Assembly (NCBI GenBank): GCA_041651155.1
Contig: JBAZJU010000004.1
Location: 39,427-103,426, forward strand
DNA: 64,000 bases
Origin: Patescibacteria group bacterium
Lineage (GTDB): Bacteria; Patescibacteriota; Patescibacteriia; CAIXNZ01
Direction: 5' to 3'
A model generated the notes under the pieces. The model made no database searches, had not been told where the DNA came from, and saw nothing but the letters and a program-made list of their open reading frames with translations. Position 1 is the stretch's first letter, and each line of letters opens with the position of its first letter. Of this stretch, positions 11,376 through 59,197 are shown piece by piece. The position numbers and the translations under genes are program-made.

Positions 11376-11410
11376 AAATTTTAAATAGAAAAATAAAAAG
11401 CCTTTTGACC

Positions 11411-17400: not shown

Positions 17401-19756
17401 AAATAAAGGCTGCCAAAAATTAGGCTTGCCAAGCTATGGAACGACAGGTGACCCGACATTTTCGGATAAATATCTGAAAAACGATCCCAACCTTTATGTT
17501 AACGCGCCAAACTCCATCATGTGCAGTGAAGAATCATTGGGTTGCAGTGAATTAATCAATGAGTCAGGAACTCCTGAATATTATAAAATAGACCAGACAA
17601 AACTCTGTGAATTCAAAACAGGTTTAGTGGCTGGAGTGAGTGTTGACGGCTGGTTTAAAAAAGGCAGTGCAACTTTGGGTTGCGGTTCTCTGCCGTATGA
17701 CCAGGCTAATTGTCCAGTTGGTGCAGGCGTTTGGAGCGAGAAATACAACCAGTGCGTGATTGTTTTAAATGATGTAACCAGCCAGGATATCTGCGTAGCT
17801 GGCAAGGGCGAATGGCTGGGCAGCAAATGTCTGGCTAATCCTTTTACAATTTATAAAATAGCTGAAGCCAATAAATATAATGGCTATGTTGGAATTTGTG
17901 AAAATAAATGGAATGGCTGTACCCAGTTTACAGATGTTAATCCAAATTTTGTCGCTAATAATAGTTTTGAAACAACAAGCGAAGGCGCGCTTTTGTCCTG
18001 GAATTCAGCAGCATCTGAGAGCTTGGGAATTTACAGGGTAGTTAGCGACAGAGTCCAGGAAGGCAATAATGCTTTGCAATTAATAAAACGAACAGAGCAA
18101 AATGCAAGCGGAGATACTTACGGGTTTGGCCAAACCATTTATCGTTTAGAAAAAGGCAAAACTTATAAAGTTTCTTTTTATTATCGTGTGCCAGCTGAGG
18201 CCAGCGGACGTGGCGAGAGCTGTCTGAGTCCGAGCGCTGCTTTTTCTTTTAATTCCTCAGACGGTATCTGTTCCAACCCTAATCATTTGACCAAAGAAAC
18301 ATGCACAGCCACAGAAACATGGAAAGCTGCGCCGCAAACTGCGGTAAATTATTATAACGCAGAAGGCGACTGGAAAAAAGTAGAAGTTTTGTATTCTGTG
18401 CCTCTGGGGATTTGTTCCACTCCTGGCAGACTGACTCAGGCAGATTGTCTGGCAGGCGGCGGCAGCTGGCAAGACCTTAAGCAGCTGCAGGATTATAAAT
18501 TGGTTTTATACGCGCCAGCTAATGCAAATTGTCCGGATTCTTATGTTTTATATGATCAGGTTGAGGTTAAAGATTATCAGGAAGACAGCTATTATGTCAT
18601 TGATCAAGGAGATAATCTTGATCGCTCCAGCTGCAATAGCATCAATTGGGATTCAGGTTGCGTGCAATTTTTGAATTCAAATACTAATTCTTACGAAATA
18701 ATTCAGGTTGCCAACGACCGCAATTGCGAGGAATGGGCAGTTTGCACCAGTCATTGTTCTGACACCGTGTCTGCCACAGAAGCGGACTGCAAAGCTAATG
18801 GACAAACCTGGAATGCTAGTCTCTGCACTGCCACGAATTTGTGCACTCAAGGAACAACAGATAACTGTACGGCCTATGCGCCTAAAAAAGATAATGTGCG
18901 CTATGGTTTAGACAGCGCGCCATTGGATGTAAAAAGAATAAGCGATTTTACAAACCAACAAGGCTATATTTACCGTTATGGCGCGGGTCCTTTGAGCCAG
19001 CTGACAGAGTGGCGGGCAGGTGACTATTCCGGCTATACAATTCCTGACCGTTTGCCGATTGAAGAGGAAATTAGTTTAGCGCCTGATCAGCAATTTAAGA
19101 CATTCCAGCCGGTTAATGATCTGGGAACCAATACTGATGATAGGCGCTATACTGAAGCGATTTGCAAAATTTTTCCCAGCGCTGACTCGCCAGTGCCTTA
19201 TGTTTTATCCCAGCAGCCGGGCTATGAAAATTTGAAGAGTTTATACAGTCAGACTTATGGTGAAAAATCCATGTCTTTTGAAGTGCTGCAAAGTAATTTG
19301 AATAAAATCGGCACAGGCTGTTTTTATGCCAAGGCAGAAGGCTCTGGCGTAACTACTTATGTGCCGCGCCTCCTGAACCCAGCCGCTGTCTGCACCTCGC
19401 CTTTAGATTTGCAAGGGAAAGTTTGCGAGATTAATGCGAATAATTGTAAAACCAGCTTTGGCGGGATTGAAACAGATGCCTGCAGTAATATTGAAAAAGT
19501 CACTGAGTTTAACGGCCTGGAAGGCATGTGTTTGGAATTTGACACTTTAAATCCGCTTTTTAGCACGATTTATAAAGATTTATATAAATCACTTGATGAA
19601 TCAGAAAATTTAACCGGGTCTGATTATCAGCCTTATGCGTGTTTAACATATTATCCGTTTTTGACTGATACCTGCCCGTTTCACGATGCAAATAATTGCG
19701 CTGCTGATCCCGGCTGCAATTGGACTGAGCCTTCAGGCCCTTGTATCCATAAATAA
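11411..19756 (+). CDS. Giant (~2780 aa) secreted/surface cysteine-rich protein with Cys-repeat arrays and CBM4/9-like beta-sandwich domains
   Basis: N-terminal signal/anchor. More than 100 Cys residues. Tandem C-x3-N-x-G-x-W repeats at about 14.76-15.2 kb. Three NxSFE...W carbohydrate-binding-like modules. ATG at 11411; the track uses TTG at 11405. Confidence 0.7.
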   Translation: MQKTKKTKLRKVIIGFIAVFFVVNSFSAILIFNVEQASAQDKAGSEVGVTAGIPVTNQAYAIERFLGSVTDELKAVFFKNILGNLLNKIASQTATWIATGAKGKGPYWITNLKQFTTDYAQGAITDMVVESIKNVTGINICEFDPRMAIDLALQIPMFPEYKGYQPNCDYTKLKNHWDEIGKSNLLTFNYSITAGGEFQKNSAQLSNSVSVDRTLLVWDKSLLQYLLKLSPCEPSGIGEITCVAPGMTENPEQYIKSQLQQIADALDTLTGKLASDVELMTKNAQLNTPVQLYVGSFIIQPERINDIKDAWNKEMDIWVTKANKINDQFSKCQNKTREQLLADPNCVSVLIELGFGALDVPGAQSSVLVPDPAAQTECQIIAGCMKADDCANIPACTGGDPICPPECTQADCKETPKPLGCIRTQNCQDCLDNIDDCSKVPARCKISGSQAVNTFQSEVTAKTTYVAATATSLISGFNYLKTQMNDNLNPANFEGGAAYSAKLAQGLFDPQANQFNTYKTLYEQMAKEGLGTFAEKQLQATVNQGWKNAEDKISGYINTPAELLKAKAVEDLTKNDTSLTYTKSIIADSLGVFLKTLWNKYMQKLLSSLSNSHQEQNTQQSLAALSGTSVTAPQSSSDQYTQRIISAQGVENYITKLAQQFTVNFSFKDVDLLSAFQTNLSGEVNPDLYNNVIDQNLAQAINDKLTIKEALAQNKLIGTYTFSWNEKADLGTYNLANLKKLRKARVIPLGLELAAELVRDCNYRQDLGADYAQYKDLDFDDTNFSNASLQGYSNTADPLKYQRLRNCLFKPLTESTSDAAAVRNYNSKRLNESVKATLAEVVSGFDKSGTGACGGNDLDEEESPFCNLVNPNWVLKLPVTKCSLPTEAEPYGEILQSNNDVSRYSHCPDFASCLQDDGKGGCVGENYGFCVKEKNVWQFNVNTCPADFNSCQTFKTDKSDNASLVSYLKNTLSGSDVCSAANAGCTSYLTKTDQASAWKDPFVIYKNRQDCETAGFGWLAEQNVCDPSRIYLNRNVNSCVVADEGCHEFMYYRNPTNNLLPDSSFEFAQDNTFPAHWDLLLQSEVSQDICTNLNDPAKNVGCQREGNCGYIKTCLNYNYKDKALCSENNGQWFPGGFCSDGSSPDQAACAANSGQWLYCVGGIKANAEKNDCANNAGQFREYCLTSLLKYNLCSNPQYDNQAACTSQNGTWHEECQKGGQVVTNLLRQDDCEDPNNGGTWVSFCQGAQLYNSTKAQCQKLLGAWQGEGPFTSLGSVSKNGNDTEQGLGKLQINIGSLTAGQELRLIYKNSFSDTSKVLTKAGDVYTASVYIKSDQALSSPIIFSLIGGQGESEISSNSITVGQSYEQVSSTLITSSPGNDLELRINLPAEQTGANIFIDTASLIMNSLDQVRSYDFVQSYQDYDLNSKVYYKKPAENLSCHGYGPNDPPPKLESNGCSDNGQTYCENTCNGYWDGTNIYSTAKFCYQYAPDNPSCSNFMKMCEPEEVGCQMYTPVNGDPSIPGVVSLTDYCPAECVGFQTYKQDPTLYEPEPDPLFNNFISETATSCTLDEVGCSQFTNLDSVAQGGEGIEYYSYIRQCIKPNLGLGEKTFFTWQSSASGPPQLVKYQYQSDKITGAPKTIDNSGDCTISLGAEDFNCIKFFDSAGIEYYRDNRKTITVADDCHPYRKTESTQANCVATNGRWQADINACLYDAIPSEGLACSAASNNCRAYVGNRGNNVYFQIYDTFENGQISDWFTGTDGTGTEGLLPSSESLVLGGHSLSVANSVREIHKSVSLAKGNLYTLSFWAKTDNSAGNNIGVKFNAGQAKSFAAVDDKKVALTTNWKNYNLGPILIDWDPSGNDSLNFSGLNSKIYLDNIVLKVVKDNVYVVKNSWNTPDSCNQNFFGAKAASDEIPPMLGCQAYTDTLGQTHNLKSFTSLCRSSAVGCQLLIDTQNSTSPNQQIFNGDNASYLDDYTVSQDQLAAYILNDSNRCTAENKGCQKLGLPSYGTTGDPTFSDKYLKNDPNLYVNAPNSIMCSEESLGCSELINESGTPEYYKIDQTKLCEFKTGLVAGVSVDGWFKKGSATLGCGSLPYDQANCPVGAGVWSEKYNQCVIVLNDVTSQDICVAGKGEWLGSKCLANPFTIYKIAEANKYNGYVGICENKWNGCTQFTDVNPNFVANNSFETTSEGALLSWNSAASESLGIYRVVSDRVQEGNNALQLIKRTEQNASGDTYGFGQTIYRLEKGKTYKVSFYYRVPAEASGRGESCLSPSAAFSFNSSDGICSNPNHLTKETCTATETWKAAPQTAVNYYNAEGDWKKVEVLYSVPLGICSTPGRLTQADCLAGGGSWQDLKQLQDYKLVLYAPANANCPDSYVLYDQVEVKDYQEDSYYVIDQGDNLDRSSCNSINWDSGCVQFLNSNTNSYEIIQVANDRNCEEWAVCTSHCSDTVSATEADCKANGQTWNASLCTATNLCTQGTTDNCTAYAPKKDNVRYGLDSAPLDVKRISDFTNQQGYIYRYGAGPLSQLTEWRAGDYSGYTIPDRLPIEEEISLAPDQQFKTFQPVNDLGTNTDDRRYTEAICKIFPSADSPVPYVLSQQPGYENLKSLYSQTYGEKSMSFEVLQSNLNKIGTGCFYAKAEGSGVTTYVPRLLNPAAVCTSPLDLQGKVCEINANNCKTSFGGIETDACSNIEKVTEFNGLEGMCLEFDTLNPLFSTIYKDLYKSLDESENLTGSDYQPYACLTYYPFLTDTCPFHDANNCAADPGCNWTEPSGPCIHK

Positions 19757-19764
19757 AAAAATAA

Positions 19765-22700
19765 ATGTTGGCTAAAATAAAAAATTTTTTTCTGCACAAT
19801 AAGACTGCCCAAATATATTTATTAAATGTGGGGCTGGTTGTTTTTATTTTGTTAATTGTTTTTTATCCGTTAACTGTCCATGCAGATATACTAAGCGGTA
19901 TTGTTAGCAATGCTTTTAATTCCGGCATTTCTATTATTATATTTATCCTGAATGCTTTTATTAAATTGTTCGGCTCGCTTTTAACAGTGGTCATGGGCGT
20001 TTTGACCTGGATTGCCCAGTATAATAAATTTATTGATAATCCATACGTCAATGAGGGCTGGGTGATTTTGCGCGATTTGGTCAATATGTTTTTTGTTTTA
20101 GGCCTGCTTTTTATTGCTTTTGTGACTGTTTTGGGCATTGAAAAACAGCCCTGGAATAAGCTTTTAGCCAGGCTTTTGATCATGGCGATCATGGTTAATT
20201 TTAGCAAGACCATTTGCGGCTTAATCATTGATTTTTTTCAGGTTTTAATGCTGACGTTTGTTAATGCTTTTAAAGATATAACTTCAGGTAATATTGAAAA
20301 AGCTTTAGGTATGGAAAATTGGTTTAAAATTCTTCCAACTGCTACTGGTGCCCAAGGAGAAATTACAGGAGGTACAGACTGGAGGCAGGGTTTAACAGCA
20401 GTGGCCGGCAGTTTATTAGGTCTGATTTATGTGATGGTTGCGTTTATTGTTGTCCTTATTTTTTGTGTGGTTTTGGCTTTTAGAATGGTTGCTTTGTGGA
20501 TTTTGGTAGTTTTTTCACCTTTGGCATTTTTTGCCTGGGCCTTTGAAGGCGCTGCTGGCAAGGTTGGCAAATTTGCCAATGAATGGTGGGATCAATTTTT
20601 CAATTATTGCGTGGTGGGACCTTGCATTGCTTTTTTCTTATGGATCTCTCTAATTACCATGGCGAAATTAAATTATGATCAGATGAATACATCTGTCACG
20701 GCAGCTGATCGGGCAAAGATAAATGCTGATATAGGAGCTGGTTCCAGCATGGATCAAGTTTTATCAGTTTTAATCGGCATTATAATGCTGGTTTCTGGCT
20801 TAACAATGTGTTCAAAATACGCTGGCGCAGCAGCCGGAGTCATGACCAAAGGCGCTAATTTTATCAAAGATCAGACAGCAGGCAGGCTGGAGCGGGCGGC
20901 AACTAGAGTTGGACGCGAAACTGCTGGAGTAGTTGGTGCGCCATTCAGAGCAGCTGGCGCAATGGCTAAATTGCCTTTTAAGGCTTTAAAGCCATTTGCC
21001 ACCGGGGCGGCTGAAGGTGCAAAGGAAAGATTGCAGAGAGGTCCTTTTTCAAGACTTTTAACAAAAGAAGGTCGCGCTCAAACAGCTGAAGCTATGAGAG
21101 AAAGAGGCAGAGCTCTTGTTCCAGGCGTCGGTCGTTTGGGTATTAGAGAAATGCGTGCTAAACAAGCGGAAGATTTTAAAAAAATCAGAAAGGATATAAA
21201 TTGGGAAAATCCAGATCAAATTAGAAAAATACAAGAAGCAGCCATAGAAAGAGATCCAAAAACCAGTAAAATTACCAGAGTAGAAAATAAAGACAGGCGT
21301 TTTTGGGAATCAACTTATACAGCTTTGGCTGATGCCGGCAAATTAAAATACAGTGATATTGAAGACATGAAAAGTTTACCTTTTTACCAAGAAATGCAAA
21401 CGGAGTCAGGCGATAGAGGCAGACAAGTCTTTTTAGAAGATATGGAAAAAAGATATGAAAAGAAGACTCAAATTAAAAAAGCTTTTTCCTCCTTGATTTA
21501 TAATGCCGATACTAATGAATACGATGATATTGAGGATTTAGAAGAAAGAAGCGACACTGCCAAAAGCAGAGCCAAAACAGCTGGTCGTGATTTAAGCGGC
21601 ATTGATTTTAATAAAATAAGACGCAAAAAAGACGATGGGACATATGAATTTGATGTTAATAGTGATGAGTACAAAAATTTGGCCAAAAATGACCCTGATA
21701 ATTTAGCATATTTACAAAATCTTCAAGCACAAGGAACCGGAACCAAATCGGATTTTTATGCTTTAGCCAGATCAACGGAAATTAGGGAGAAAAAATTCAA
21801 TGAGATTAGAAAAGCAGCCGCTACTGCTTCAGAACCCAATCTTAATGAAGCAGGGAAACAGGCTAATTTAGGCGATATTATTCAAAATCCGCCCGATTAT
21901 GCAGTGGCAGAAATTGACGGCTTTACAGACCAAATACCCAGAATTGGCAAACTTGATAAAATTGCCCGGGATAATGTCAATGCCAAGGCCAGATTTTTAA
22001 TGGGAGATAATCGTGAGCGGGCGGCTTTAATTGAAGCCAATAAAAATCTTTTTGATAAATCTTTGCATCGTCAGGAAAATGAAACAGAAAATGAGCATGC
22101 AACGCGGTTAGGGGGCATGTCGCAAATTAAAAAAATTGATGATATTAAAGGTAAAATGAAAGAGGAACAGCTTGAAAAATTTCAGAATTTAATCATTGAA
22201 TCAAGCTCACAATTTAATGCCATCGGCCAGAAATTACCAGGGGGAGAAGGCCAATCAAGCGCTAACCTGGATTCCATAATACGCCAAAAGAGAGTGCAAA
22301 GTGGTGTCACAGCTGGCCTTAAAGCATTTATACCGAATGTTAATGATTTGGAATTTGTTGATGCCCAGGCAGCGCAAATGTTAGCTCAAACAGCAGACTT
22401 CCCAAGAGAAGACAGGATAAACAAAATTTCAATTCGCTTGGCGGTTAGAAAAAACCTGCCAGAAGAAAATAGGAATAAAATTGCAGAATATTTGATTGAC
22501 AATGAAGTTATTGTTAGAACTCGCGAGAAAAAAGAGGAAGCTGTGAAAGAAAAAGTAAAAGTAAATATCAAGACAACCATTGATGAAGTGAAAAAGCAGG
22601 TGCAAAGCAGAGTAATTGATCAGGGTAAAATAGAATTTGCCATTGATAATATTATTTTCAGGATAAATAAAGAAATTACAGAAGGCGCTTTGCCAGAGGA

Positions 22701-22863
22701 AACTTTTAAGCCCGAGTTATTAAAGCAAGAGTTATCAAAGCTGGTAGAGATGTTGGGTAAATTTGAAAGTAAAGAAGAGGCAACTTCAGCAGTCAAAAAA
22801 GTTGAAGACGCTGTTGAGGCCTTGGGTTATAAAGTTAAAACTCAAAAAGGGAAAAAGAAATAA
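19765..22863 (+). CDS. VirB6/TrbL-like polytopic membrane protein with long C-terminal charged (K/E-rich) domain
   Basis: About 8 TM helices in the first ~340 aa, then ~690 aa of hydrophilic coiled-coil-like sequence. Sits beside the VirB4 ATPase. Confidence 0.5.
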   Translation: MLAKIKNFFLHNKTAQIYLLNVGLVVFILLIVFYPLTVHADILSGIVSNAFNSGISIIIFILNAFIKLFGSLLTVVMGVLTWIAQYNKFIDNPYVNEGWVILRDLVNMFFVLGLLFIAFVTVLGIEKQPWNKLLARLLIMAIMVNFSKTICGLIIDFFQVLMLTFVNAFKDITSGNIEKALGMENWFKILPTATGAQGEITGGTDWRQGLTAVAGSLLGLIYVMVAFIVVLIFCVVLAFRMVALWILVVFSPLAFFAWAFEGAAGKVGKFANEWWDQFFNYCVVGPCIAFFLWISLITMAKLNYDQMNTSVTAADRAKINADIGAGSSMDQVLSVLIGIIMLVSGLTMCSKYAGAAAGVMTKGANFIKDQTAGRLERAATRVGRETAGVVGAPFRAAGAMAKLPFKALKPFATGAAEGAKERLQRGPFSRLLTKEGRAQTAEAMRERGRALVPGVGRLGIREMRAKQAEDFKKIRKDINWENPDQIRKIQEAAIERDPKTSKITRVENKDRRFWESTYTALADAGKLKYSDIEDMKSLPFYQEMQTESGDRGRQVFLEDMEKRYEKKTQIKKAFSSLIYNADTNEYDDIEDLEERSDTAKSRAKTAGRDLSGIDFNKIRRKKDDGTYEFDVNSDEYKNLAKNDPDNLAYLQNLQAQGTGTKSDFYALARSTEIREKKFNEIRKAAATASEPNLNEAGKQANLGDIIQNPPDYAVAEIDGFTDQIPRIGKLDKIARDNVNAKARFLMGDNRERAALIEANKNLFDKSLHRQENETENEHATRLGGMSQIKKIDDIKGKMKEEQLEKFQNLIIESSSQFNAIGQKLPGGEGQSSANLDSIIRQKRVQSGVTAGLKAFIPNVNDLEFVDAQAAQMLAQTADFPREDRINKISIRLAVRKNLPEENRNKIAEYLIDNEVIVRTREKKEEAVKEKVKVNIKTTIDEVKKQVQSRVIDQGKIEFAIDNIIFRINKEITEGALPEETFKPELLKQELSKLVEMLGKFESKEEATSAVKKVEDAVEALGYKVKTQKGKKK

Positions 22864-22878
22864 TTTTCAAATAAAGAT

Positions 22879-24210
22879 ATGCCGGAAAGAAATTATAAAA
22901 TAGAAAATTTAGGGAATTTTCAAGACATATTTTTTCAGGTATTAAAAAAAAATAATGTGGAAGCCGAAACTGAAAAGATTTTTGATTTTTTAGTCCAAAC
23001 AATTTTAGGCAGGTTTAACGTTTTGCAGTTGAGCAATTCATTTGAAAGTGATTTGAATCTTGATTTTGAAACCGCCAATAGTTTGGCATATGATTTAAAA
23101 ATTAAGATTTTGGATAAAAAATCTGATCTGGACGAGGTAAAAAACAAGTTGCAAGGCAAAACCTGGCAAAAATATTCTCCGCTGGCCATTGCTGATGAGT
23201 TTTTGGCTAAATTAAATTATTCGCTAAAGGATGAAAATAAGAAAAAAAGATATTACGAAGCGATTTTGAGCTGGCTAAAGGAAGTGCGCGATCTGCCTGA
23301 ACTGAAAGATATTTTGACCCGTTCAGAAAAAATTGGCGGCATAGGCATGAGTGAAGAAGTTTTTAATCGACTTTATGATTTGCTTGTTGCTAAAAAAGAG
23401 GAAATCAGAAAAGAAAAGGTTGATTTGATCAAAATAATTGCGGATTATGAGTTAGGACAGAAAAAAGAAACTGTGGCTATGCCAAGTGGAATTAAGGAAG
23501 AAGAGATAGATGTTTCGGCCAGACCAAAACAAATTTCCATTGTTAAAGAAAATCCAACCGGGGGTGATGTTACCATTGACCATTTACTAAAGGAAAAAGG
23601 GGTGCCCTTTGAGGAATTAGCGCAAAAGGAAGAGATAAAGAGGCAGCTTGGCGAAATAGCAAAAATTGCTTCCAAGCCGGAAGCCCCCTTAGTTGAAGAG
23701 ATTAAGGCGAATGAAGAATTCATAGAAAGCCGAAAAGAAATTGAACCGCCAGCCCAAACAAATTACCAGCTCAGGCAGCCAGTTATACATCCAGAAATGC
23801 CGATACCTTCAGAGCTTAAAACCGAATTTAAGCAGCCGATGGTTAAAAACACTGACAACGAGATCAGGCCGAAATTAGATGACGTGAAATTTACCCCTCA
23901 ATTATACGGGCCCGTTGATGAATTAGGAGCCTTTAAAATTGAGGATCTGCGCCGCTTATCTAAAGATCCGCAGGTCGCAGTCCAGAAAATAAAATCCAAA
24001 ATTGAACTTTTAGAAGACGATTCGCTTGTTAAGAGAAATGAAGGCCTCAAGGCCTTAAAAAACAGTCCGCTTTATAAAGCTTATGCTGAAATTATGAACA
24101 CAGCAATTAAAGAAGGCAAATCATTTGCTCAAGTCATAGCAGCGAAGCCAATTATGACTCTGGCCGAGTTTAAAGCAGTAATGGATTTAAATAAAAGTCT
24201 AAAGTATTGA
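22879..24210 (+). CDS. Hypothetical charged/coiled-coil protein (T4SS-locus associated)
   Basis: 443 aa, K/E-rich, no recognisable motif. Confidence 0.45.
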   Translation: MPERNYKIENLGNFQDIFFQVLKKNNVEAETEKIFDFLVQTILGRFNVLQLSNSFESDLNLDFETANSLAYDLKIKILDKKSDLDEVKNKLQGKTWQKYSPLAIADEFLAKLNYSLKDENKKKRYYEAILSWLKEVRDLPELKDILTRSEKIGGIGMSEEVFNRLYDLLVAKKEEIRKEKVDLIKIIADYELGQKKETVAMPSGIKEEEIDVSARPKQISIVKENPTGGDVTIDHLLKEKGVPFEELAQKEEIKRQLGEIAKIASKPEAPLVEEIKANEEFIESRKEIEPPAQTNYQLRQPVIHPEMPIPSELKTEFKQPMVKNTDNEIRPKLDDVKFTPQLYGPVDELGAFKIEDLRRLSKDPQVAVQKIKSKIELLEDDSLVKRNEGLKALKNSPLYKAYAEIMNTAIKEGKSFAQVIAAKPIMTLAEFKAVMDLNKSLKY

Positions 24211-24331
24211 AGCCTATAGGCTATTTTGTGGAATTAAAATTACCTTCGGCGTATTTGAAATCCGCCGAAGCAAAAGAAGGTTATCTAATAGATTTATTTT
24301 TGTAACATTCCGCGTAGGCGGATAAAAATTT

Positions 24332-24778
24332 ATGGCTGATGAAGTACAGGAGACGCAATCATTATCGCATTTTTTAGTGCCGCAATTCATTGATATAGAA
24401 TCAAAAATTATCGGGCCAATCACCACCAGGCAATTTCTGATTATGATGGTTGCCGGCATGCTGGATTTTATTTTTTATAAGATATTTTATTTTAATACAT
24501 TTTTAGCCGTGGGGATCATAGTTTCAGGCATTTTTGGCGTAGTTGCTTTTGTAAAAATTAATGGCATGCCTTTTCACTTTTTTTCCCTGAATGTAATTCA
24601 GACATTAAAAAAATCCAAACTAAGGCTGTGGTCAAAAGAAGCAATTACGGCTCTGCCGCCGGTTGAAAAGGCAGAGGTTAAAAAAGAATTTATAGCCAAG
24701 CCTGCTTTGGTCAGTTCCAGGCTGTCCAGCTTATCTTTAGTGGTCAATACAGGCGGCGCTTATCGGGAAGAAGAATAA
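24332..24778 (+). CDS. Small two-TM membrane protein (possible VirB3/PrgI-like T4SS component)
   Basis: 148 aa, two adjacent hydrophobic helices, immediately upstream of the VirB4 pieces. Confidence 0.35.
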   Translation: MADEVQETQSLSHFLVPQFIDIESKIIGPITTRQFLIMMVAGMLDFIFYKIFYFNTFLAVGIIVSGIFGVVAFVKINGMPFHFFSLNVIQTLKKSKLRLWSKEAITALPPVEKAEVKKEFIAKPALVSSRLSSLSLVVNTGGAYREEE

Positions 24779-24794
24779 TTATAATTAACCGCAG

Positions 24795-24850
24795 ATTTTA
24801 TTCACAGATAACACAGATTTGTGAATAGTATCAGTGTAAATCTGTGATAA
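24795..24850 (+). promoter_or_regulatory. Operator-like TCACAGA/TCTGTGA direct and inverted repeat cluster upstream of the virB4 N-terminal ORF
   Basis: attcacagataacacagatttgtgaat, then repeated aatctgtg. The same heptamer family occurs at 58131-58195. Confidence 0.35.
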
Positions 24851-24882
24851 TTAATCTGTGTTTAAGATATCAAATCAAATCT

Positions 24883-25536
24883 ATGGCAAAATCATCAACC
24901 CAAAAATATCTGGATATTGCGGAAATAAGGGAAGATACGGTTATTTTAAAAGACGGCACCTTACGCTCGGTAATTTTGTGTTCCAGCATTAATTTTGCTT
25001 TAAAATCAGAAGAAGAACAAAATGCTTTGATTTTTGGCTACATAGAGTTTTTAAATTCTTTAGATCATCCTATGCAGATTGTTATCCAGTCAAGAAAACT
25101 GGAAGTTGATAATTATCTTAGAAGACTTAGAGAGGCGCAGAGAGTGCAAACTAATGAATTATTAAAAATACAAATAGCCAGCTATATTGATTATATTCAA
25201 GAGCTGATTGAAATTGGTGAAATAATGACCAAGAAGTTTTTTATTATCATCCCTTATAATCCCTTAGGTGATAAAACCAAAAGCTTTTGGTCCAGATTGA
25301 GTGAGGTTTTTAGCGCCAGCCGGTCTATTAAAATAAAAAAGGAAAAGTTTTTGGGATATAAAGAAGCTTTAAACCTGCGCTTGGCTAATGTCCAAACCAA
25401 TCTGAAAGGCATGGGTCTTGATTCAGCGGTTTTGGATACGCAGAGTTTAATAGAACTTTATTATAGCGTGTATAACCCAAAAACAAGCCAAAACCAAAAA
25501 TTACGGGATATCAGCCAGCTTGGGATTGAACGCTAA
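24883..25536 (+). CDS. VirB4/TrbE N-terminal domain encoded as a separate ORF
   Basis: IAEIREDTVILKDGTLRSVI...SEEEQNALIFGYIEFLN matches the VirB4 N-terminal region. Same frame as the downstream ATPase ORF, separated by one TAA. Confidence 0.55.
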   Translation: MAKSSTQKYLDIAEIREDTVILKDGTLRSVILCSSINFALKSEEEQNALIFGYIEFLNSLDHPMQIVIQSRKLEVDNYLRRLREAQRVQTNELLKIQIASYIDYIQELIEIGEIMTKKFFIIIPYNPLGDKTKSFWSRLSEVFSASRSIKIKKEKFLGYKEALNLRLANVQTNLKGMGLDSAVLDTQSLIELYYSVYNPKTSQNQKLRDISQLGIER

Positions 25537-25563
25537 ATTATATTTTTTAAAATAAATTTTTTT

Positions 25564-27504
25564 ATGGCCATACCAATTACACCAGAGACACAAACAGAGC
25601 TGAGACCAGCGCCTGCTCAGCTTTCAAAAAAAGAACAGCAAGCAGCGATTAAAGCCGAAGCAATTACCCTGGAAGAAGAAAGGCTTTTTCGCCAAGGTTT
25701 GATAGAGATTAAAGATTTGATTGCGCCGGCGGCTTTGGAAGTAAAACCGACTTATATGCTTTTGGGTGATCTTTTTGTCAGAACACTTTTTGTTTTAAAT
25801 TATCCGCGTTATATCTCTGTAGGCTGGTTTACGCCGATTATCAACCTGAGCAAAACCTTGGATGTCGCCATGTTTTTTTATCCTGTCAGGTCAGATATTA
25901 TTCTGAAGCAATTAAAAAAGAGAGTGGGAAATCTGGAGGCACAGCTCATGTCGGATATTGAAAAAGGCGCGCCTCGCGATCCAATTTTGGAAACAGCTTT
26001 GCGTGATATTGAAAAATTACGGGACGATCTGACTCAGGGCACTGAAAAATTTTTCCAATTTGCCCTGTATGCCACGCTTTATGCCAATACCTTGGAAGAA
26101 TTAGATGAATTAACAGCAGAAATTGAAGCGATTTTGGGAGGCAAGCTGATTTATAGCAAACGAGTTTTTTACCAATCAGAACAAGGCTTTAATTCAACCT
26201 TGCCTTTGGCTGAGGATGAATTAATGGTCTCATTTAATATGAATACTTCGCCCGTTGCCTCTTCATTCCCCTTTATTTCTTCAGAATTAACTTCAGACGA
26301 CGGAATTTTATACGGCATCAACCGGCATAATAACAGCTTAATACTTTTTGACAGATTTTCTTTGCAGAATGCTAATTTTGTGGTGTTTGCGACTTCGGGC
26401 GCAGGTAAAAGTTATACCATCAAGCTGGAAGTTTTGCGCAGCCTGATGTTGGGCGTTGACATAATAATTATTGATCCTGAAAGAGAATACCTGCATCTGG
26501 CAGAGGCAGTTGGCGGCACTTATGTGGATATTTCTTTAGCCTCAAAAAATAAAATTAATCCATTTGACTTGCCCAGAGCAATTGGCGATGCAAGTACTGA
26601 AGATATTATCCGCAGCGCGGTTATTACCTTGAAAGGCTTATTGCGCTTGATGCTGGGGAATTTGACTGTGGAGGAGGATTCTATTTTAGATCGGGCTTTG
26701 ATTGAAACTTATGCAAGCAAAGATATAACCCCGCAGTCAGATTTGTCTGTCGCCGAAGCGCCAGTGATGCAGGATTTGCAGAGTATTTTGGAAGGCATGG
26801 AGGGTGCAAAAACATTAAGTCTGAGATTAAAAAAATATACTGATGGCACATTTGCGGGCTTGTTTAACCAGCCAACCAATGTGGATATGCATAATCAGCT
26901 TGTGGTTTTTAGCGTCCGAGATTTGGAAGACGAACTCAGGCCGATTGCAATTTATAGCATTATAAATTATATCTGGAATGTGGTGCGTTCAGAAATTAAA
27001 AAAAGGGTATTAGTTATTGATGAAGCCTGGTGGCTGATGACTCATGAGGATTCAGCAAAATTTATTTATGCCTTGGTTAAGCGCTGCCGCAAGTATTATC
27101 TCGGCGTGACTACGATTACGCAGGACGTGAATGACTTTTTAAATAATCCGTATGGCAAGGCCATTGTGACAAACTCAGCTCTGCAGCTGCTTTTAAAACA
27201 ATCGCCTGCAGCTATTGATACGATTCAGGATATATTTTTGTTGACTCAGGGTGAAAAGTATTTGCTGATGGAAGGCGGCGTAGGCGAGGGCATCTTTTTT
27301 GCAGGCAATAAGCATGCGGCCATCAAAGTAGTCGCCTCATACAATGAAGACCAGCTAATAACCAGCGATCCCAAGCAGCTTTTAGAAATAGAAGCGGCTA
27401 AGCGAGAATTTGAAGAACAGACAAAAACTCCAGAGGCAGGATCCAAAAAACAATTAGTCCCGCCCAGAAAAAGAGAAGGCAGTTTTGAGGAGATGACAAT
27501 TTAA
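25564..27504 (+). CDS. virB4: VirB4/TrbE-family type IV secretion ATPase (C-terminal two-thirds)
   Basis: Walker A FATSGAGKSY, Walker B VLVIDEAWWLM, and the conserved VirB4 mid-region (YPRYISVGWFTPIINL). Confidence 0.8.
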   Translation: MAIPITPETQTELRPAPAQLSKKEQQAAIKAEAITLEEERLFRQGLIEIKDLIAPAALEVKPTYMLLGDLFVRTLFVLNYPRYISVGWFTPIINLSKTLDVAMFFYPVRSDIILKQLKKRVGNLEAQLMSDIEKGAPRDPILETALRDIEKLRDDLTQGTEKFFQFALYATLYANTLEELDELTAEIEAILGGKLIYSKRVFYQSEQGFNSTLPLAEDELMVSFNMNTSPVASSFPFISSELTSDDGILYGINRHNNSLILFDRFSLQNANFVVFATSGAGKSYTIKLEVLRSLMLGVDIIIIDPEREYLHLAEAVGGTYVDISLASKNKINPFDLPRAIGDASTEDIIRSAVITLKGLLRLMLGNLTVEEDSILDRALIETYASKDITPQSDLSVAEAPVMQDLQSILEGMEGAKTLSLRLKKYTDGTFAGLFNQPTNVDMHNQLVVFSVRDLEDELRPIAIYSIINYIWNVVRSEIKKRVLVIDEAWWLMTHEDSAKFIYALVKRCRKYYLGVTTITQDVNDFLNNPYGKAIVTNSALQLLLKQSPAAIDTIQDIFLLTQGEKYLLMEGGVGEGIFFAGNKHAAIKVVASYNEDQLITSDPKQLLEIEAAKREFEEQTKTPEAGSKKQLVPPRKREGSFEEMTI

Positions 27505-27534
27505 AACTATTTTAAAAAAATAAATAAATTCATT

Positions 27535-28173
27535 ATGGCAATCAGAGATGAATTAACAAAAAGAAAAAAAGTAATCTGGCTTATTATTATTTTATTATTA
27601 ATTTTAATTATTGGCGCGATAGTCTATCTGCTGTTGATTTATTTTAAAGTGCCTATTTTAAATAATAATACCAGCCCTAATCTTAACCAGGTTCCAGTCC
27701 AGCCCGGGGCTGCGCAGCCTATTTTTAATACTCCAAATACCGGAGTGACAGCGGAAATCCAGGAATTAAATAACACTGTTCCAGTTAATACGGACCAGCA
27801 AAATGTCATATTTATTGCTTCTTCATTTGCAGAAAGATTCGGCACATATTCAAATCAGGGTAATTATAAAAATTTTGATGAATTGGGCTCTCTGATTACG
27901 GCCAGCATGCAAACTTGGCTCACTCAGTATAAAGCGCAATTAGAAAAAGAAAATCCAGATATTAGTAGCTATTATGCTCTGGAAACAAAAGCTATTTCAA
28001 CTCAGGTCAGAAGTTTAAACTCAACAACTGGCCAGGGAGAAATTCTGGTTAAAACTCAAAGGCAGGAATTTAAAAATTCTACCTCCAATCCTCGCGTATT
28101 TTATCAGGATATACTTTTAAAATTAGTAAATGTTAATAATGTCTGGAAAGTAAACGGAGCATATTGGCAATAG
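27535..28173 (+). CDS. N-terminally anchored protein with NTF2-like C-terminal domain (VirB8-like candidate)
   Basis: Single N-terminal TM helix, ~150-aa soluble domain ending VWKVNGAYWQ. The position in the T4SS-like locus supports the call. Confidence 0.3.
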   Translation: MAIRDELTKRKKVIWLIIILLLILIIGAIVYLLLIYFKVPILNNNTSPNLNQVPVQPGAAQPIFNTPNTGVTAEIQELNNTVPVNTDQQNVIFIASSFAERFGTYSNQGNYKNFDELGSLITASMQTWLTQYKAQLEKENPDISSYYALETKAISTQVRSLNSTTGQGEILVKTQRQEFKNSTSNPRVFYQDILLKLVNVNNVWKVNGAYWQ

Positions 28174-28210
28174 CCTGGATATTGGAAATAAGAAATACGA
28201 AATTAGGATT

Positions 28211-28933
28211 ATGGAATTTAAAAAAATTAAGAATTTTATCCTGGATTTATTTTTTCCTAAAGAATGTTTTGGCTGCGGGGAGGAAGGCTTATATTTATGC
28301 CATCAATGTTTGGGGAAAATTGATTTAAATAAAAGATATTATTGCGCCTTGTGCAAAGCTGAAAGCCGGCAATCGCTTATCTGTCCGAATTGCAGGACAG
28401 GCAGTTCACTTTTAGCTGTCTGGGTGGCAACAGATTATAATAACAAAATTTTACAGGATCTAATCCATCATTTAAAATATAATTATCTGGAAGAATTGGC
28501 AGAAGATTTAGCTAATTTAGCCATCAGCTATTTGGAGACAAATAATATTTTAAATACATTTGAGCTGAATCAAGCTAATACAATAATTGTGCCGGTACCT
28601 TTGCACAAAAAGCGTTTTTTAAGCCGAGGCTTTAATCAGAGTGAATTATTAACAAAAAAAATAGGCAATTATTTCCGGTTTTCTAATAAGGGATTAATTA
28701 CTAGAAATATAAATACGCCCAGTCAGATTAATTTGAAGAGAATTGACAGGCAGGCTAATGTAAGAGACGTTTTTTCTTTAATAACTATAAAAGATTGTGA
28801 TAAAAATAAAAAAATCATCCTAATTGATGATGTAATTACCACAGGGAGTACATTAAATGAGTGCGCAAAAATTTTAAGCGAGCATGGCTTTAAAGAAATT
28901 TACGGTTTAGTAATTGCCCAGAGAGAAGATTAA
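28211..28933 (+). CDS. comFC: ComF-family protein (zinc-finger plus phosphoribosyltransferase domain), ComFC-like
   Basis: N-terminal CxxC...CxxC...CxxC cluster and C-terminal PRTase motif IILIDDVITTGSTL. Confidence 0.75.
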   Translation: MEFKKIKNFILDLFFPKECFGCGEEGLYLCHQCLGKIDLNKRYYCALCKAESRQSLICPNCRTGSSLLAVWVATDYNNKILQDLIHHLKYNYLEELAEDLANLAISYLETNNILNTFELNQANTIIVPVPLHKKRFLSRGFNQSELLTKKIGNYFRFSNKGLITRNINTPSQINLKRIDRQANVRDVFSLITIKDCDKNKKIILIDDVITTGSTLNECAKILSEHGFKEIYGLVIAQRED

Positions 28934-29587: not shown

Positions 29588-30109
29588 ATGGCAGCTGAAA
29601 TATCCAATGATAATAATGAATTACAACCGCAAGATAATGATTTTGGCGAGGTTTTATTCCAGTGGACAATTCCAGAATATATTGCCCACGAACGAAGCTT
29701 AATTTGGTATTTAATAATGATAGGTTTGGCTTTGATTTTGATTATTTATAGCATTTTTACAGCTAATTTCCTATTCGCCCTGATTATTATTGTGGCGATT
29801 TTTATTGTCTTTTTAAAAAGCTATTCTCAGCCTAAAGAATTAACATTTCAAATTACTGATCAAGGCCTGATTTTGGGCACACAATTTTTCCCATATAGCA
29901 GAATAAATAAATTCTACATTATTTACAAACCGCCAACAGTAAAAAAGATATTTTTTGATTTAAAGGGATTATCGCCAGACTTGTCGGTTTGGCTGGATGA
30001 AATGAATCCACTAGAGGTCAGAGAAACGCTTTTAGAATTTTTGCAGGAAGATTTGGAAAAAGAACGCCAGACTATTGATGATATTCTGGATACCCTTTTA
30101 AAGTTGTAA
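29588..30109 (+). CDS. Hypothetical membrane protein
   Basis: 173 aa with two central TM helices; no recognisable family. Confidence 0.45.
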   Translation: MAAEISNDNNELQPQDNDFGEVLFQWTIPEYIAHERSLIWYLIMIGLALILIIYSIFTANFLFALIIIVAIFIVFLKSYSQPKELTFQITDQGLILGTQFFPYSRINKFYIIYKPPTVKKIFFDLKGLSPDLSVWLDEMNPLEVRETLLEFLQEDLEKERQTIDDILDTLLKL

Positions 30110-30629: not shown

Positions 30630-32696
30630 ATGTATTCTTTGGAAACGCCAATTGAAGAGTTAACTCGAGTTGGGAAAGCGACGGCCGGCAGATTAAATCG
30701 GTTAGGGCTAAAGACAGTGAATGATCTATTGTACTATTGGCCGTTTCGCTATGAGGATTTTAGCCGCCTTATCGCTATCAAAGATTTACAGCCCAACCAG
30801 ATAGTGACAATTAAGGGCAAAATTGTTTTAATTGAAAACAGGAAAAGCCACAGGAAAAGAATGACCATAACAGAAGCTTTAATTGAGGATGAGACAGGTT
30901 CAATTAAAGTTGTCTGGTTCAACCAGCCTTATTTAATAAAAAATTTAAGAGCAGGCGAGGAAGTTTTTATTGCCGGCACGACTGAAATAAAAAACATGTC
31001 ATTGCAGTTTACTTCGCCGGCTTATGAAAAAATTTCTGATCGAGCGAGTATAAATACTGCAAAAATTGTCCCTGTTTATCCTTTAACCAGTAATTTAACT
31101 CAAAAACAATTGCGTTTTTTAATTAGTCTAATTTTAAATTCCACTAAGTTAATTACAGATTGGCTGCCAAATGAAATTAAAGAAAAATATAAATTGTTGA
31201 GTTTAAACTTAGCTTTAAACGAAATACATTTTCCTAAAAATTTGGAAACAATGGAACAGGCTCGTTATCGCCTTAAATTTGACGAGCTTTTTTTAATTGC
31301 CTTGCAAACCCAGCTTTTAAGGAAATTTTTAACACAAAATCCTGCTCCGGCCATTAAATTCCATGAGGCTAAAATTAAAAGTTTTGTAGATTCTTTGCCT
31401 TATGAATTAACAAATGATCAGAGAAAGGCTGCCTGGCAGATCATGATTGATTTAGCCAAAACCAAACCAATGAATCGTCTTTTGGAAGGCGATGTTGGTT
31501 CGGGCAAGACCGTTGTTTCTGCACTGGCAATATTAGATACTGTCTTGAATGGTTATCAGGCTGTTTTAATGGCGCCGACAGAAATTTTAGCCAGGCAGCA
31601 TTTTAATTCTCTAAGCAAATTTTTTCATAATTTTGCTATTAAAATAGCGCTCTTGACCCACAGTGAAAAGCTGGTAAATAATGATGAAAATTTAGAAAAA
31701 AACGAAGTCTTAAAAAAAATTAAAAATGGAGAAATAGATTTGATTATTGGTACGCATGCCCTGATCCAAGACTCAGTTGCCTATAAAAAAATCGGGCTGA
31801 TTGTAGTTGATGAGCAGCATCGTTTTGGCGTAGAACAGAGGAAAAAATTAAAAGATAAAAATAAAAATAAAAAATTGCCGCATTTTCTGTCAATGACTGC
31901 CACTCCTATCCCAAGATCACTAGCCTTAATTTTATACGGTGACTTAGACTTATCAATGATTAAAGAAATGCCCAAGGGCAGGAAAAAGATTATTACCAAG
32001 ATAATTGCTGAAAAAGAGCGGTCAAACGCTTATCAGTTTATCAAAGAGGAAATAGCTGCCCGCCGCCAGGTTTTTGTCATTTGTCCGCTGATAGATCCTT
32101 CGGATAAATTGGGAGTCAAATCAGTAACTGAAGAATTTAAAAAGCTTGATAAAGTAATTTTTCCTGATTTAAAAATTGGTTTGCTGCACGGCAAATTAAA
32201 AGCTAATGAAAAAGAAGAAATAATGAGAGAATTTAAAGACAATAAAATAAAAATTTTGGTTTCCACTTCTGTGATAGAGGTTGGGATTGATATTCCCAAT
32301 GCCACGATAATGATGATTGAAGGCGCTGATCGTTTTGGCTTAGCACAGCTGCATCAGTTTCGTGGCAGGGTTGGCAGGGGAGAACATCAGTCATCTTGTT
32401 TCCTGTTTACGGAAAATAATTCTCCCAAAACTCGGGAAAGACTGTCTGCCCTAACTCAATCAAATGACGGGTTCGCCTTAGCAGAATATGATCTTAAATT
32501 CCGCGGGCCTGGCGAAGTTTATGGTACGAGGCAATCAGGCCTGCCTGATATGCGGCTGGCAACTTTAAATGATTTAGACTTGATAGATCTGACGAAAAAA
32601 GTGGCTCAGGAATTTTTAGAAAAAAATAATTTAGATAATCATTCTTTGCTTAAGCTCAAATTGGAAGAAGGGAAAATGATGAATCATTTGGAATAG
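30630..32696 (+). CDS. recG: ATP-dependent DNA helicase RecG
   Basis: N-terminal wedge/OB region, helicase motifs GDVGSGKT and DEQHRFG, 688 aa. Confidence 0.85.
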   Translation: MYSLETPIEELTRVGKATAGRLNRLGLKTVNDLLYYWPFRYEDFSRLIAIKDLQPNQIVTIKGKIVLIENRKSHRKRMTITEALIEDETGSIKVVWFNQPYLIKNLRAGEEVFIAGTTEIKNMSLQFTSPAYEKISDRASINTAKIVPVYPLTSNLTQKQLRFLISLILNSTKLITDWLPNEIKEKYKLLSLNLALNEIHFPKNLETMEQARYRLKFDELFLIALQTQLLRKFLTQNPAPAIKFHEAKIKSFVDSLPYELTNDQRKAAWQIMIDLAKTKPMNRLLEGDVGSGKTVVSALAILDTVLNGYQAVLMAPTEILARQHFNSLSKFFHNFAIKIALLTHSEKLVNNDENLEKNEVLKKIKNGEIDLIIGTHALIQDSVAYKKIGLIVVDEQHRFGVEQRKKLKDKNKNKKLPHFLSMTATPIPRSLALILYGDLDLSMIKEMPKGRKKIITKIIAEKERSNAYQFIKEEIAARRQVFVICPLIDPSDKLGVKSVTEEFKKLDKVIFPDLKIGLLHGKLKANEKEEIMREFKDNKIKILVSTSVIEVGIDIPNATIMMIEGADRFGLAQLHQFRGRVGRGEHQSSCFLFTENNSPKTRERLSALTQSNDGFALAEYDLKFRGPGEVYGTRQSGLPDMRLATLNDLDLIDLTKKVAQEFLEKNNLDNHSLLKLKLEEGKMMNHLE

Positions 32697-33468: not shown

Positions 33469-34803
33469 TTAAAGTATTTTTTTTATAGCTTCTTCCAGGC
33501 TTTTAACCATTGTTACTTTTTTATCTGTTTTAAAAACAGGCGTAATAATATTTTTAAAATTCATTTTTTGCGCTTCTTCAATTCTTTTTTCCATTTGAGA
33601 AACTGGCCGAATTTCCCCGCCTAACCCGACTTCGCCAATTATTAAAGTATCAGGTTTAATAATTTTGTCTTTAAATGAGGAAATAATTGCCAGACAAACT
33701 GCCAAATCAGCGCCAGTTTCAATAATTTTAAGTCCGCCTGTAACATTCAGATGCACGTCTTGGTTGACCAAGGGAATATTGGCTCTTTTGATTAAGACCG
33801 CAATTAACATCTGCAAGCGATTCAAATCAAAACCCGAGGTTTTTCTTTGCGGATAGCCAAACAGGGTTTTACTGGATAATGCTTGAACTTCAATTAAAAA
33901 TGGCCTGACGCCTTCCATAATGCAGGTTAGACTAGAGCCAGAAATTGATTCCTGGTTATGAGGCAAAAAAAGTTCAGAAGGATTTTTTACTTCCAAAAGT
34001 CCAGTGCCAGTCATGCTAAAGACGCCGAGTTCATTTGTTGAACCAAAGCGATTTTTAGCGCAGCGCAAGAGCCGAAAATCATTCTGGCTGGAACCTTCCA
34101 AATACATAACAGCATCAACCAGATGTTCTAATGATTTTGGGCCGGCAACCAGGCCGTCTTTGGTTACATGGCCAATGATTAAAATTGGGATATTGAATTT
34201 TTTAGCAATTTCCAAAAGTTTTACAGTACAAATTCGTACCTGGTTAATTGAACCGGCTTCTGAGGGCAGTTCCGTGGAATATAAAGTTTGAATGGAGTCA
34301 ATAATTAACAGACTGGGTTTTTCTTCAATGGCAAAAGCCACAATTTTTTCCATGTTATTTTCACCCAGGAATTTTAAATTTGAAAAATCAAGATTCAAGC
34401 GATCAATTCTCATTTTAATCTGAGAGGCTGATTCCTCGCCTGAGACATATAAAATAGGGGACTTAATTTTATCGCAAATCTGCAAGACCAGAGTTGATTT
34501 GCCAATGCCTGGTTCGCCGCCGAGTAAAATTAAGGAGCCGACAACAATCCCGCCGCCTAGTACCCGGTCAAATTCAGAGACCTGAGTTTGCAATCGGGCT
34601 TGGCTCGGCGGCGGCGTTTTTTGAAAATCAATCAGCTGGTTTTTATCAACTTTGGTTATTGTAGATTGGAGATTTGAGATTGGGGATGAGATTTCTTCAC
34701 TTACAGTGCCCCAAGAGCCACAAGTAGTACAACGCCCAGTCCACTTGGGGAATTGGGCGCCACACTTTGAGCAGGTGAAGATGGTTTGAGGTTGTTTGGG
34801 CAT
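33469..34803 (-). CDS. radA: DNA repair protein RadA/Sms
   Basis: N-terminal C4 zinc finger (CSKCGAQF...CTTCGSW), Walker A GEPGIGKST, KNRFG motif, Lon-like C-terminal domain. Confidence 0.9.
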   Translation of the reverse strand: MPKQPQTIFTCSKCGAQFPKWTGRCTTCGSWGTVSEEISSPISNLQSTITKVDKNQLIDFQKTPPPSQARLQTQVSEFDRVLGGGIVVGSLILLGGEPGIGKSTLVLQICDKIKSPILYVSGEESASQIKMRIDRLNLDFSNLKFLGENNMEKIVAFAIEEKPSLLIIDSIQTLYSTELPSEAGSINQVRICTVKLLEIAKKFNIPILIIGHVTKDGLVAGPKSLEHLVDAVMYLEGSSQNDFRLLRCAKNRFGSTNELGVFSMTGTGLLEVKNPSELFLPHNQESISGSSLTCIMEGVRPFLIEVQALSSKTLFGYPQRKTSGFDLNRLQMLIAVLIKRANIPLVNQDVHLNVTGGLKIIETGADLAVCLAIISSFKDKIIKPDTLIIGEVGLGGEIRPVSQMEKRIEEAQKMNFKNIITPVFKTDKKVTMVKSLEEAIKKIL

Positions 34804-58339: not shown

Positions 58340-58422
58340 TTAGTGTTTAAGAATGAATATTTAAAACAGAAACCAAATCCGCTATCAACGGGTATAAAAC
58401 CAATCTTAAAGGAGTACAAGAA

Positions 58423-58731: not shown

Positions 58732-58780
58732 ACATTCCTGAAATTTCGGGCAAGTTAATTATAAAAGTTAGCTTGCCCAT

Positions 58781-58822: not shown

Positions 58823-58852
58823 AATGTTCTTTACAAAAGAAAGGAGAAAAAA

Positions 58853-59140: not shown

Positions 59141-59197
59141 AGATTTGCAATCGCTTGTGATTTATCGGGCAGAAATTGTCCTGCAATTTTTGCCCAT

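Follow-up and report, generated by a model that had tools for sequence, protein, structure and literature searches.

A chromosomal type IV secretion system locus with separate TrsD and VirB4 genes in an ABY1-group Patescibacteria bacterium

A large part of bacterial diversity belongs to the Patescibacteria, which lack the ability to synthesize nucleotides, amino acids, or lipids for themselves. To our knowledge, the Patescibacteria type IV secretion system (T4SS) is the only one on which its bearer's survival has so far been shown to depend, in one Saccharibacterium. Here we describe a T4SS gene cluster at positions 19765-28933 of a 64-kb stretch of DNA (the window) from a Patescibacteria metagenome-assembled genome. 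The cluster is part of a run of eight closely spaced + strand open reading frames (ORFs) spanning 11405-28933, the first of which encodes a giant Cys-rich protein (11405-19756) that lies outside the coordinates of the cluster itself. An earlier inspection of the letters, which we call the sequence-only reading, had recognized a T4SS-like locus here, and the ORF coordinates and features it described proved correct throughout; the gene assignments it proposed also held up. Window ORFs were searched for domains with Pfam and NCBIfam; several small ORFs lay outside the scanned set, and negative results for the window refer to the scanned ORFs. Relatives were collected by a scan with one genome per species, which returned 80 related loci with VirB4 proteins 69-88% identical.

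The best-defined product of the cluster is a 646-aa VirB4-type T4SS ATPase of the CD1110/MPF-FATA type (25564-27504, + strand). It scored 359.6 bits against NCBIfam NF045971 (CD1110 VirB4-like conjugal transfer ATPase; cut-off 325), with a match spanning profile positions 171-730 of 752, and it also matched Pfam P-loop_TraG (E = 2e-26) and AAA_10. The Walker motifs that had been read from the sequence were located as ATSGAGKS at residue 276 (nt 26389-26412) and VLVIDE at residue 482 (nt 27007-27024). Upstream of this gene lies a TrsD/TraD-like ORF (24883-25536, + strand) of 217 aa when translated from the ATG at 24883, or 230 aa from the GTG at 24844 with which the ORF opens. The 217-aa protein matched NCBIfam TrsD/TraD with an E value of 5.9e-10 and 39 bits, below the curated cut-off of 200, as well as the N-terminal positions of three VirB4 models. 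On the Mbov_0397 VirB4 model, the two window proteins tile, covering positions 102-262 and 292-891. By these matches, the TrsD-like protein corresponds to the N-terminal domain of VirB4, supplied here by a gene of its own.

The sequence-only reading had called this a split VirB4. The two ORFs are real, but nothing has been disrupted, and the pair is better described as ancestral. An inactivated system, in which a nonsense mutation or an error of assembly at the TAA of 25534-25536 disrupted virB4, would account for the fact that the two ORFs share a frame here, separated by that one TAA and nine further sense codons. Yet TrsD and VirB4 are separate ORFs in every one of the 80 species and occupy different frames in 57; the 23 same-frame loci correspond to the one in three expected by chance. 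Both proteins are also well conserved, with median identities across loci of 56% for the TrsD-like protein and 74% for VirB4, and the same two-gene layout, which defines the TrsD family, is present on a Pontibacillus plasmid (see also PMC12102498). There, a 274-aa ORF lies directly 5' of a 621-aa CD1110-type virB4 and aligns with the TrsD-like protein of the window over the full length of the latter (28% identity, BLASTP E = 5e-27). Given separate ORFs in 80 of 80 species and the Pontibacillus pair, the split is therefore an old two-gene arrangement. A pseudogene or stop-codon readthrough at the TAA was rejected on the same 80 of 80 count, and we regard inactivation of the system as extremely improbable. 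TrsD is the commonest T4SS component in Patescibacteria (PMC12102498).

The gene that opens the cluster encodes a 1,032-aa VirB6/TrbL-like polytopic membrane protein with a charged C-terminal extension (19765-22863, + strand). Hydrophobic segments lie between residues 15 and 343, the VirB6-like part comprises residues 1 to about 370, and the tail is 689 aa long with 126 K+R and 112 D+E residues, in line with the extension of ~690 aa that had been noted. No domain was detected in the tail; it can be aligned in the closest relatives only and evolves quickly. A very basic stretch immediately follows the last hydrophobic segment, which suggests that the tail is cytoplasmic. At the other end of the cluster, a 212-aa VirB8-like bitopic protein (27535-28173, + strand) is composed of one N-terminal transmembrane (TM) helix, a disordered linker, and an NTF2-like domain. 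The profile check suggested by the sequence-only reading bore out its VirB3-like protein only: direct scans of the VirB6-like and VirB8-like proteins with Pfam and NCBIfam gave no match. Structure modeling of both proteins supported the assignments at the level of the fold in this ABY1 member, as a VirB6/TrbL-type polytopic membrane protein and as an N-anchored NTF2-like protein of the VirB8 fold. A VirB6-like gene was detected upstream in 44 related loci. The VirB3-like protein, earlier described as a mini-protein with two TM segments, is 148 aa long (24332-24778, + strand), with adjacent segments at residues 35-53 and 56-74. It belongs to the PrgI family (Pfam PF12666, 32.7 bits against a gathering score of 27), and its gene occurs in 75 of the 80 related loci at a median identity of 47%.

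Between the VirB6-like and PrgI genes lies a gene for a conserved, soluble, charged protein of 443 aa and unknown fold, here p443 (22879-24210, + strand). As first described, it is charged (16.5% K+R and 17.6% D+E) and has no TM segment. No credible sequence match was found in Pfam, NCBIfam, or the PDB. A profile search, however, collected 2,520 cluster representatives at E ≤ 1e-3, and conservation concentrates in two modules at residues ~100-175 and ~330-443. The protein is present in 72 of the 80 related loci and is always encoded between the VirB6-like and PrgI genes. It thus represents a large uncharacterized family (at least 2,500 sequence clusters) and a fixed member of the operon. A conserved "GGxGL...A" motif was considered as a helix-hairpin-helix (HhH) DNA-binding element, but this was unsupported: PDB searches with sub-profiles of both modules returned chance-level hits and no HhH protein (e.g., Tyr-tRNA ligase, E = 0.017). 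In many relatives, an additional ORF of 290-430 aa (23 clustering members, in loci L014-L079; e.g., L049:6507-7493) is located between the VirB6-like and p443 genes. This ORF family is absent from the window and from most of its closest relatives, and the idea that it had been fused into window proteins was dismissed, as BLASTP found no similarity to the cluster proteins of the window at E < 1e-3.

Beyond the individual genes, we examined the arrangement of the cluster and its chromosomal context. The order p443-PrgI-TrsD-VirB4-VirB8-like is kept in all 68 loci that hold all five genes, an arrangement far beyond chance. Within the same loci and genomes, the median identity of VirB4 (74%) exceeds that of RecG (53.5%), which indicates strong purifying selection on VirB4. 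On either side lie ordinary chromosomal genes, among them NrdD/NrdG, HtrA, a release factor, KsgA, tRNAs, RecG, a DNA glycosylase, RadA, and PheS/PheT, and the same neighborhood is found across many species. The G+C content of the window is low (0.31-0.42), with no local shift across the T4SS locus. The window ORFs that were scanned with Pfam and NCBIfam yielded no relaxase, type IV coupling protein (T4CP), or integrase. From the housekeeping flanks, the even G+C content, the conserved order, and the lack of mobility genes among the scanned ORFs, it therefore follows that the locus is, very probably, a vertically inherited chromosomal T4SS under strong selection rather than a conjugative element.

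The VirB4, TrsD, and PrgI families were first defined on conjugative plasmids and integrative and conjugative elements (ICEs), and the locus could accordingly be taken for an ICE, active or decaying, with a Gram-positive-type transfer module. This explanation founders on the absence of any relaxase, T4CP, integrase, or replication gene among the scanned ORFs, on an unshifted base composition, on a chromosomal context that is the same in dozens of species, and on a VirB4 more conserved than RecG. Lacking mobility genes and set in a conserved context, the ICE reading was rejected as highly improbable. We instead hold with considerable confidence that this locus, from a bacterium of the Falkowbacteria-like/ABY1 group, derives from monoderm MPF-FATA conjugation machinery and is no longer conjugative. 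Several points weigh against this view. A T4CP or relaxase may be encoded outside the 64-kb window. No VirB1-like wall hydrolase (lytic transglycosylase, CHAP, NlpC/P60, or M23) was found in the scanned ORFs. The structure model of the VirB6-like protein is of medium confidence (predicted local distance difference test, pLDDT, of 71), and the sequence of the protein itself gives no match to the Pfam TrbL model. The parts played by p443, the giant protein, a pilin-domain protein, and a DsbA-like protein (both described below) are drawn from synteny and nothing else. Finally, we know of no experiment on any ABY1 member.

Comparison with characterized systems places the locus among those already described. 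In a survey of 2,474 virB4 genes, Quinonero-Coronel et al. (2025; PMC12102498) recovered a monophyletic Patescibacteria VirB4 clade related to MPF-FATA. In that clade, TrsD is the partner found most often, homologs of PrgI/VirB3 and VirB6 occur, VirB8 is detectable almost exclusively in ABY1, VirB2-like pilins lie nearby, relaxases are very few, and comF, recG, and radA are found in the T4SS loci of ABY1 (PMC12102498). The locus of the window is a typical member of this group: it shares the separate TrsD, PrgI/VirB3, VirB4, VirB6, and VirB8, a nearby pilin domain, the chromosomal location, and the lack of a relaxase. The likeness to the minimal T4SS of candidate phyla radiation (CPR) episymbionts, raised from the sequence alone, thus agrees with published descriptions (PMC12102498 and PMC10633639). 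No VirB1-like hydrolase lies beside virB4 here, and, in contrast to Saccharimonadia, the window has no array of pilin genes inside the cluster and carries instead a single pilin domain within a Cys-rich protein of 520-539 aa. We found no discussion of the p443 family or of the long VirB6 tail in PMC12102498 or PMC10633639. The window therefore adds a clean and complete ABY1 example rather than a new kind of system.

The order VirB6-VirB3-(TrsD)-VirB4-VirB8 is also that of MPF-FATA systems such as pGO1/pSK41 (TrsC-TrsD-TrsE), pCF10 (PrgH-PrgI-PrgJ-PrgK-PrgL), and Clostridioides difficile CTn2 (CD1110). Relative to these, the window lacks a relaxase, a coupling protein, a VirB1 hydrolase, and a mobile element, and it adds the 443-aa protein and a pilin-like domain normally lacking in Gram-positive systems. 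The nearest plasmid-borne VirB4 proteins, from Bacillota and Actinomycetota, are 29-36% identical to that of the window. On the Bacillus and Pontibacillus plasmids, a peptidoglycan hydrolase directly follows virB4. The Pontibacillus locus (NZ_CP062975.1, 351801-361354; L082) encodes a pilin-like protein of the Mbov_0395 family, a 145-aa protein, a 779-aa hypothetical protein, a 116-aa protein, the 274-aa TrsD-like protein, the 621-aa VirB4, and the large peptidoglycan hydrolase, and its succession of pilin, large hypothetical protein, TrsD-like protein, and VirB4 matches the Patescibacteria layout. BLASTP detected no similarity of the 779-aa and 116-aa proteins to the VirB6-like and PrgI-like proteins of the window. 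PLSDB types this megaplasmid as non-mobilizable, and it is a useful outgroup for the layout. The extended VirB6 proteins of the Rickettsiales Rvh system, discussed in a 2025 review (PMC12857230), resemble the window protein in having a polytopic core followed by a large hydrophilic C-terminal domain; the window differs in that its 689-aa tail is rich in K, R, D, and E, fast evolving, and devoid of recognizable domains, and in that the organism is monoderm.

Candidates for surface-exposed parts are encoded on both sides of the cluster. The giant protein immediately upstream (11405-19756, + strand) is 2,783 aa long and contains 114 Cys (4.1%), which bears out its earlier description as a giant Cys-rich protein. 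It has one N-terminal hydrophobic segment and matches the carbohydrate-binding module (CBM) family CBM_4_9 of Pfam in two stretches (E = 3e-10). In the closest relatives, this gene is retained upstream of the VirB6-like gene, and large Cys-rich ORFs (roughly 3-8% Cys against a background of 1%) occupy this upstream position in about 20 of 39 loci, some of them distant. Such giants (e.g., in loci L013, L023, L033, L043, L046, L060, L061, L068, L074, and L079) recur even where their sequences no longer align. This recurrence is not mentioned, as far as we could find, in the Patescibacteria T4SS literature (PMC12102498 and PMC10633639). We consider the giant protein a probable secreted surface or host-binding partner of the system.

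Downstream, a Cys-rich secreted protein with a T4SS_pilin domain is encoded at 35436-37055 on the - strand, with a likely start at ATG 36998. The domain (PF18895, 33.8 bits against a cut-off of 26.6) occupies residues 185-253 and is flanked by two TM segments in a 520-539-aa protein that also has a signal-like segment and 42 Cys. A VirB2-like pilin domain is thus present in the vicinity of virB4, although outside the operon, about 6.5 kb downstream and on the opposite strand. The pilin domain sits between two Cys-rich regions, and a protein of this size is unusual for VirB2. Adjacent to it, a membrane-anchored DsbA-like thioredoxin (37036-37728, - strand) matches Pfam Thioredoxin_4 (E = 7e-31) and DSBA (E = 1e-11), and the end of its gene overlaps the upstream TTG start of the pilin-domain ORF. 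The pilin-domain gene lies beside RadA and DsbA in five loci (L003, L006, L007, L010, and L025), and the block recurs in close relatives; DsbA is present in 11 of 41 loci. Disulfide formation in the Cys-rich secreted proteins is probably the work of the DsbA-like protein, a functional link suggested by their proximity.

The last gene of the run encodes a 240-aa ComFC-type protein (28211-28933, + strand), which starts 37 nt past the VirB8-like gene on the same strand. The expected double zinc ribbon and phosphoribosyltransferase domains were both detected above Pfam cut-offs (DZR_2, 29.6 bits against 27; Pribosyltran, 28.3 bits against 26.3), and the CxxC pairs and the phosphoribosyl pyrophosphate loop motif IILIDDVITTGSTL are present. 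Matches to NCBIfam comF (96.8 bits, E = 1.5e-27) and GntX (103 bits, E = 1.5e-29) are significant but below the equivalog cut-offs. Further along are p173, a 173-aa membrane protein without family (29588-30109, + strand), a RecG helicase with the Pfam domains RecG_wedge, DEAD, Helicase_C, and RecG_dom3_C (30630-32696, + strand), a conserved DNA-recombination neighbor rather than a part of the T4SS, and the conserved neighbor RadA/Sms (33469-34803, - strand), a recombination protein with a Zn ribbon, a KaiC-like ATPase domain, and Lon_C/ChlI domains. RecG and RadA both fall within 6 kb of the cluster. No ComEC or ComFA was found among the scanned window ORFs.

Across relatives, ComFC is directly downstream of the VirB8-like gene in 35 of the 61 loci with enough sequence. 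In the other 26, it is mostly RadA that follows the VirB8-like gene on the same strand, either directly or after a DsbA gene. Among loci reaching more than 6 kb downstream, RecG is present in 26 of 41 and RadA in 25 of 41. Where RadA takes the place of ComFC (L022, L032, L039, L040, L049, L052, L053, L059, L069, L071, and L078-L080), RecG and p173 follow beyond it with their orientation reversed. The pattern resembles an inverted ComFC-to-RadA segment, one breakpoint of which falls where the T4SS operon ends; the far end of that segment showed no ComFC. Across at least 30 species, p173 adjoins RecG whatever the orientation relative to the T4SS, which suggests a functional pairing of its own.

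The sequence-only reading had taken the adjacency of ComFC as a pointer towards DNA uptake. The pointer towards DNA handling stands; the inference of uptake is weakened by the fact that only 35 of 61 relatives share the adjacency, which had moreover already been noted for ABY1, and it does not settle the function. The neighborhood of ComFC, RecG, and RadA consistently ties the locus to proteins that act on incoming DNA, and it is the best argument for a nucleic-acid cargo. In its fullest form, the argument would be that the T4SS imports host or environmental DNA or RNA and hands it to ComFC, RadA, and RecG for recombination or nucleotide salvage. Such import would refine the cargo and direction of the system rather than give it another identity, and its analogs would be ComB in Helicobacter pylori or Ced in archaea. 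Both of these systems, ComB with ComEC/ComFC and the Sulfolobales Ced with CedB, employ VirB4-type ATPases without a relaxase or T4CP, as here, and the window VirB4 is weakly similar to the import ATPase CedB (E = 7e-13; 48 bits against a family cut-off of 700). In H. pylori, ComFC acts downstream of the T4SS-like importer; ComB, however, is a diderm VirB2-10 system, whereas import by the window system is only a hypothesis. In favor of import are also the position of ComFC 37 nt past the VirB8-like gene, its replacement by RadA in most loci where it is not the immediate neighbor, the proximity of RecG and RadA, and the association of comF, recG, and radA with the T4SS of ABY1 in the earlier survey (PMC12102498). 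A 2026 preprint (10.64898/2026.06.21.733656) further reports that a cultivated relative feeds on host RNA, and it proposes that T4SS pili are present where the two cells meet.

Other observations temper this proposal. The p173-RecG pair, unrelated to the T4SS, is equally stable, and the link may simply be inherited gene order. ComFC is missing nearby in 26 of 61 relatives, the link is confined to this class, with other Patescibacteria classes placing their T4SS by dnaA/dnaN (PMC12102498), and the HhH-type motif that might have tied p443 to DNA was unsupported. Wang et al. (2023; PMC10633639) showed that T4SS genes (SEML1_0006-0019) are essential for the Saccharibacterium S. epibionticum to grow as an epibiont, work summarized in the 2025 review (PMC12857230). 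Deletion of comEC in the same organism, the one relative that has been tested genetically, abolished competence and left viability intact (PMC10633639 and PMC12857230), and the essential role of the T4SS is therefore not ComEC-dependent transformation. On balance, nucleic acid is a plausible cargo that gene neighborhood does not establish, and import as set out above is a possibility we rate as rather unlikely.

The absence of a T4CP and relaxase among the scanned ORFs, both of which DNA export would need, also counts towards another reading. The T4SS may secrete effector proteins into or onto the host, or build a VirB2-type pilus or adhesive conduit, a reading to which the nearby pilin-domain protein, the CBM-containing Cys-rich giant, and DsbA lend weight. 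Wang et al. favor protein export or another role (PMC10633639), and the review stresses the pilus-making potential of these systems (PMC12857230). Set against this, neither an effector candidate nor a secretion signal emerged, a T4CP is used by most protein-secreting T4SSs but is missing among the scanned window ORFs, and the pilin-domain gene, opposite in strand and about 6.5 kb off, was found by tblastn in only 5 of 41 relatives. Export or pilus biogenesis is accordingly a serious contender that we place a little short of even, and we give the same tentative standing to its corollary that the neighboring DNA genes are unrelated to the T4SS.

From the observed gene assignments we infer, within the favored view of a formerly conjugative machine, how its parts might fit together, what it carries, and in which direction. 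The VirB6-like protein would form the base of the membrane channel, PrgI/VirB3 and the separate TrsD would dock the VirB4 ATPase motor on the membrane, and the VirB8-like bitopic protein would act as a wall-facing collar. The p443 protein and the 689-aa VirB6 tail would be lineage-specific additions, probably on the cytoplasmic side. Extracellular or host-contact parts would probably be supplied by the protein with the VirB2-like pilin domain and by the Cys-rich giant with its carbohydrate-binding stretches, with their disulfides probably formed by the DsbA-like oxidase. So assembled, the machine would most likely move macromolecules across the contact with the host cell. A bolder proposal, which we put forward as speculative and consider improbable, is that the ABY1 T4SS imports host nucleic acid in a contact-dependent manner and passes it straight to ComFC, RadA, and RecG, with the TrsD/VirB4 motor replacing a ComFA-type translocase and with the Patescibacteria-specific p443 and the VirB6 tail forming a cytoplasmic substrate-receiving platform in place of the coupling protein. 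If true, it would define a new functional class of T4SS and a route by which auxotrophic cells obtain nucleotides. Among the features added here, the fold-level assignment of VirB6 and VirB8, the family size and fixed position of p443, and the alternation of ComFC and RadA after virB8 provide handles for testing the idea of nucleic-acid import; the recurrent Cys-rich giant with DsbA is a further addition.

Additional features of the window concern non-coding sequence and a distant gene group. An Rfam scan of the window found three tRNAs and nothing else, and promoter and terminator scans performed no better than on shuffled sequence. In the spacer between p443 and PrgI, one of the few in the cluster longer than 100 nt, a near-perfect hairpin with 13-nt arms occupies 24244-24270 (CTTCGGCGTATTT / AAATCCGCCGAAG; 92% complementary, with a 1-nt loop and without a T-run after it), which may be an attenuator or a processing site. 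In the spacer between PrgI and TrsD (24781-24885), an 8-10-nt motif (CACAGAT(TT) / AATCTGTG) occurs six times, three times per orientation, and the copies form nested inverted repeats just 5' of the TrsD start. This spacer holds four of the eight CACAGAT sites of the whole window. Neither the repeat nor the spacer proved to be conserved among related loci, and the arrangement could be a lineage-specific operator or RNA structure. Far from the cluster, positions 58400-63300 hold a series of small ORFs that match no family, preceded by a TrmB-like regulator-sized gene on the other strand. An N-terminal INKNSWHYRLV segment and a hydrophobic core are common to two of these ORFs (60043-60456 and 62766-63221), and the region may be a variable island or a set of paralogous membrane proteins.

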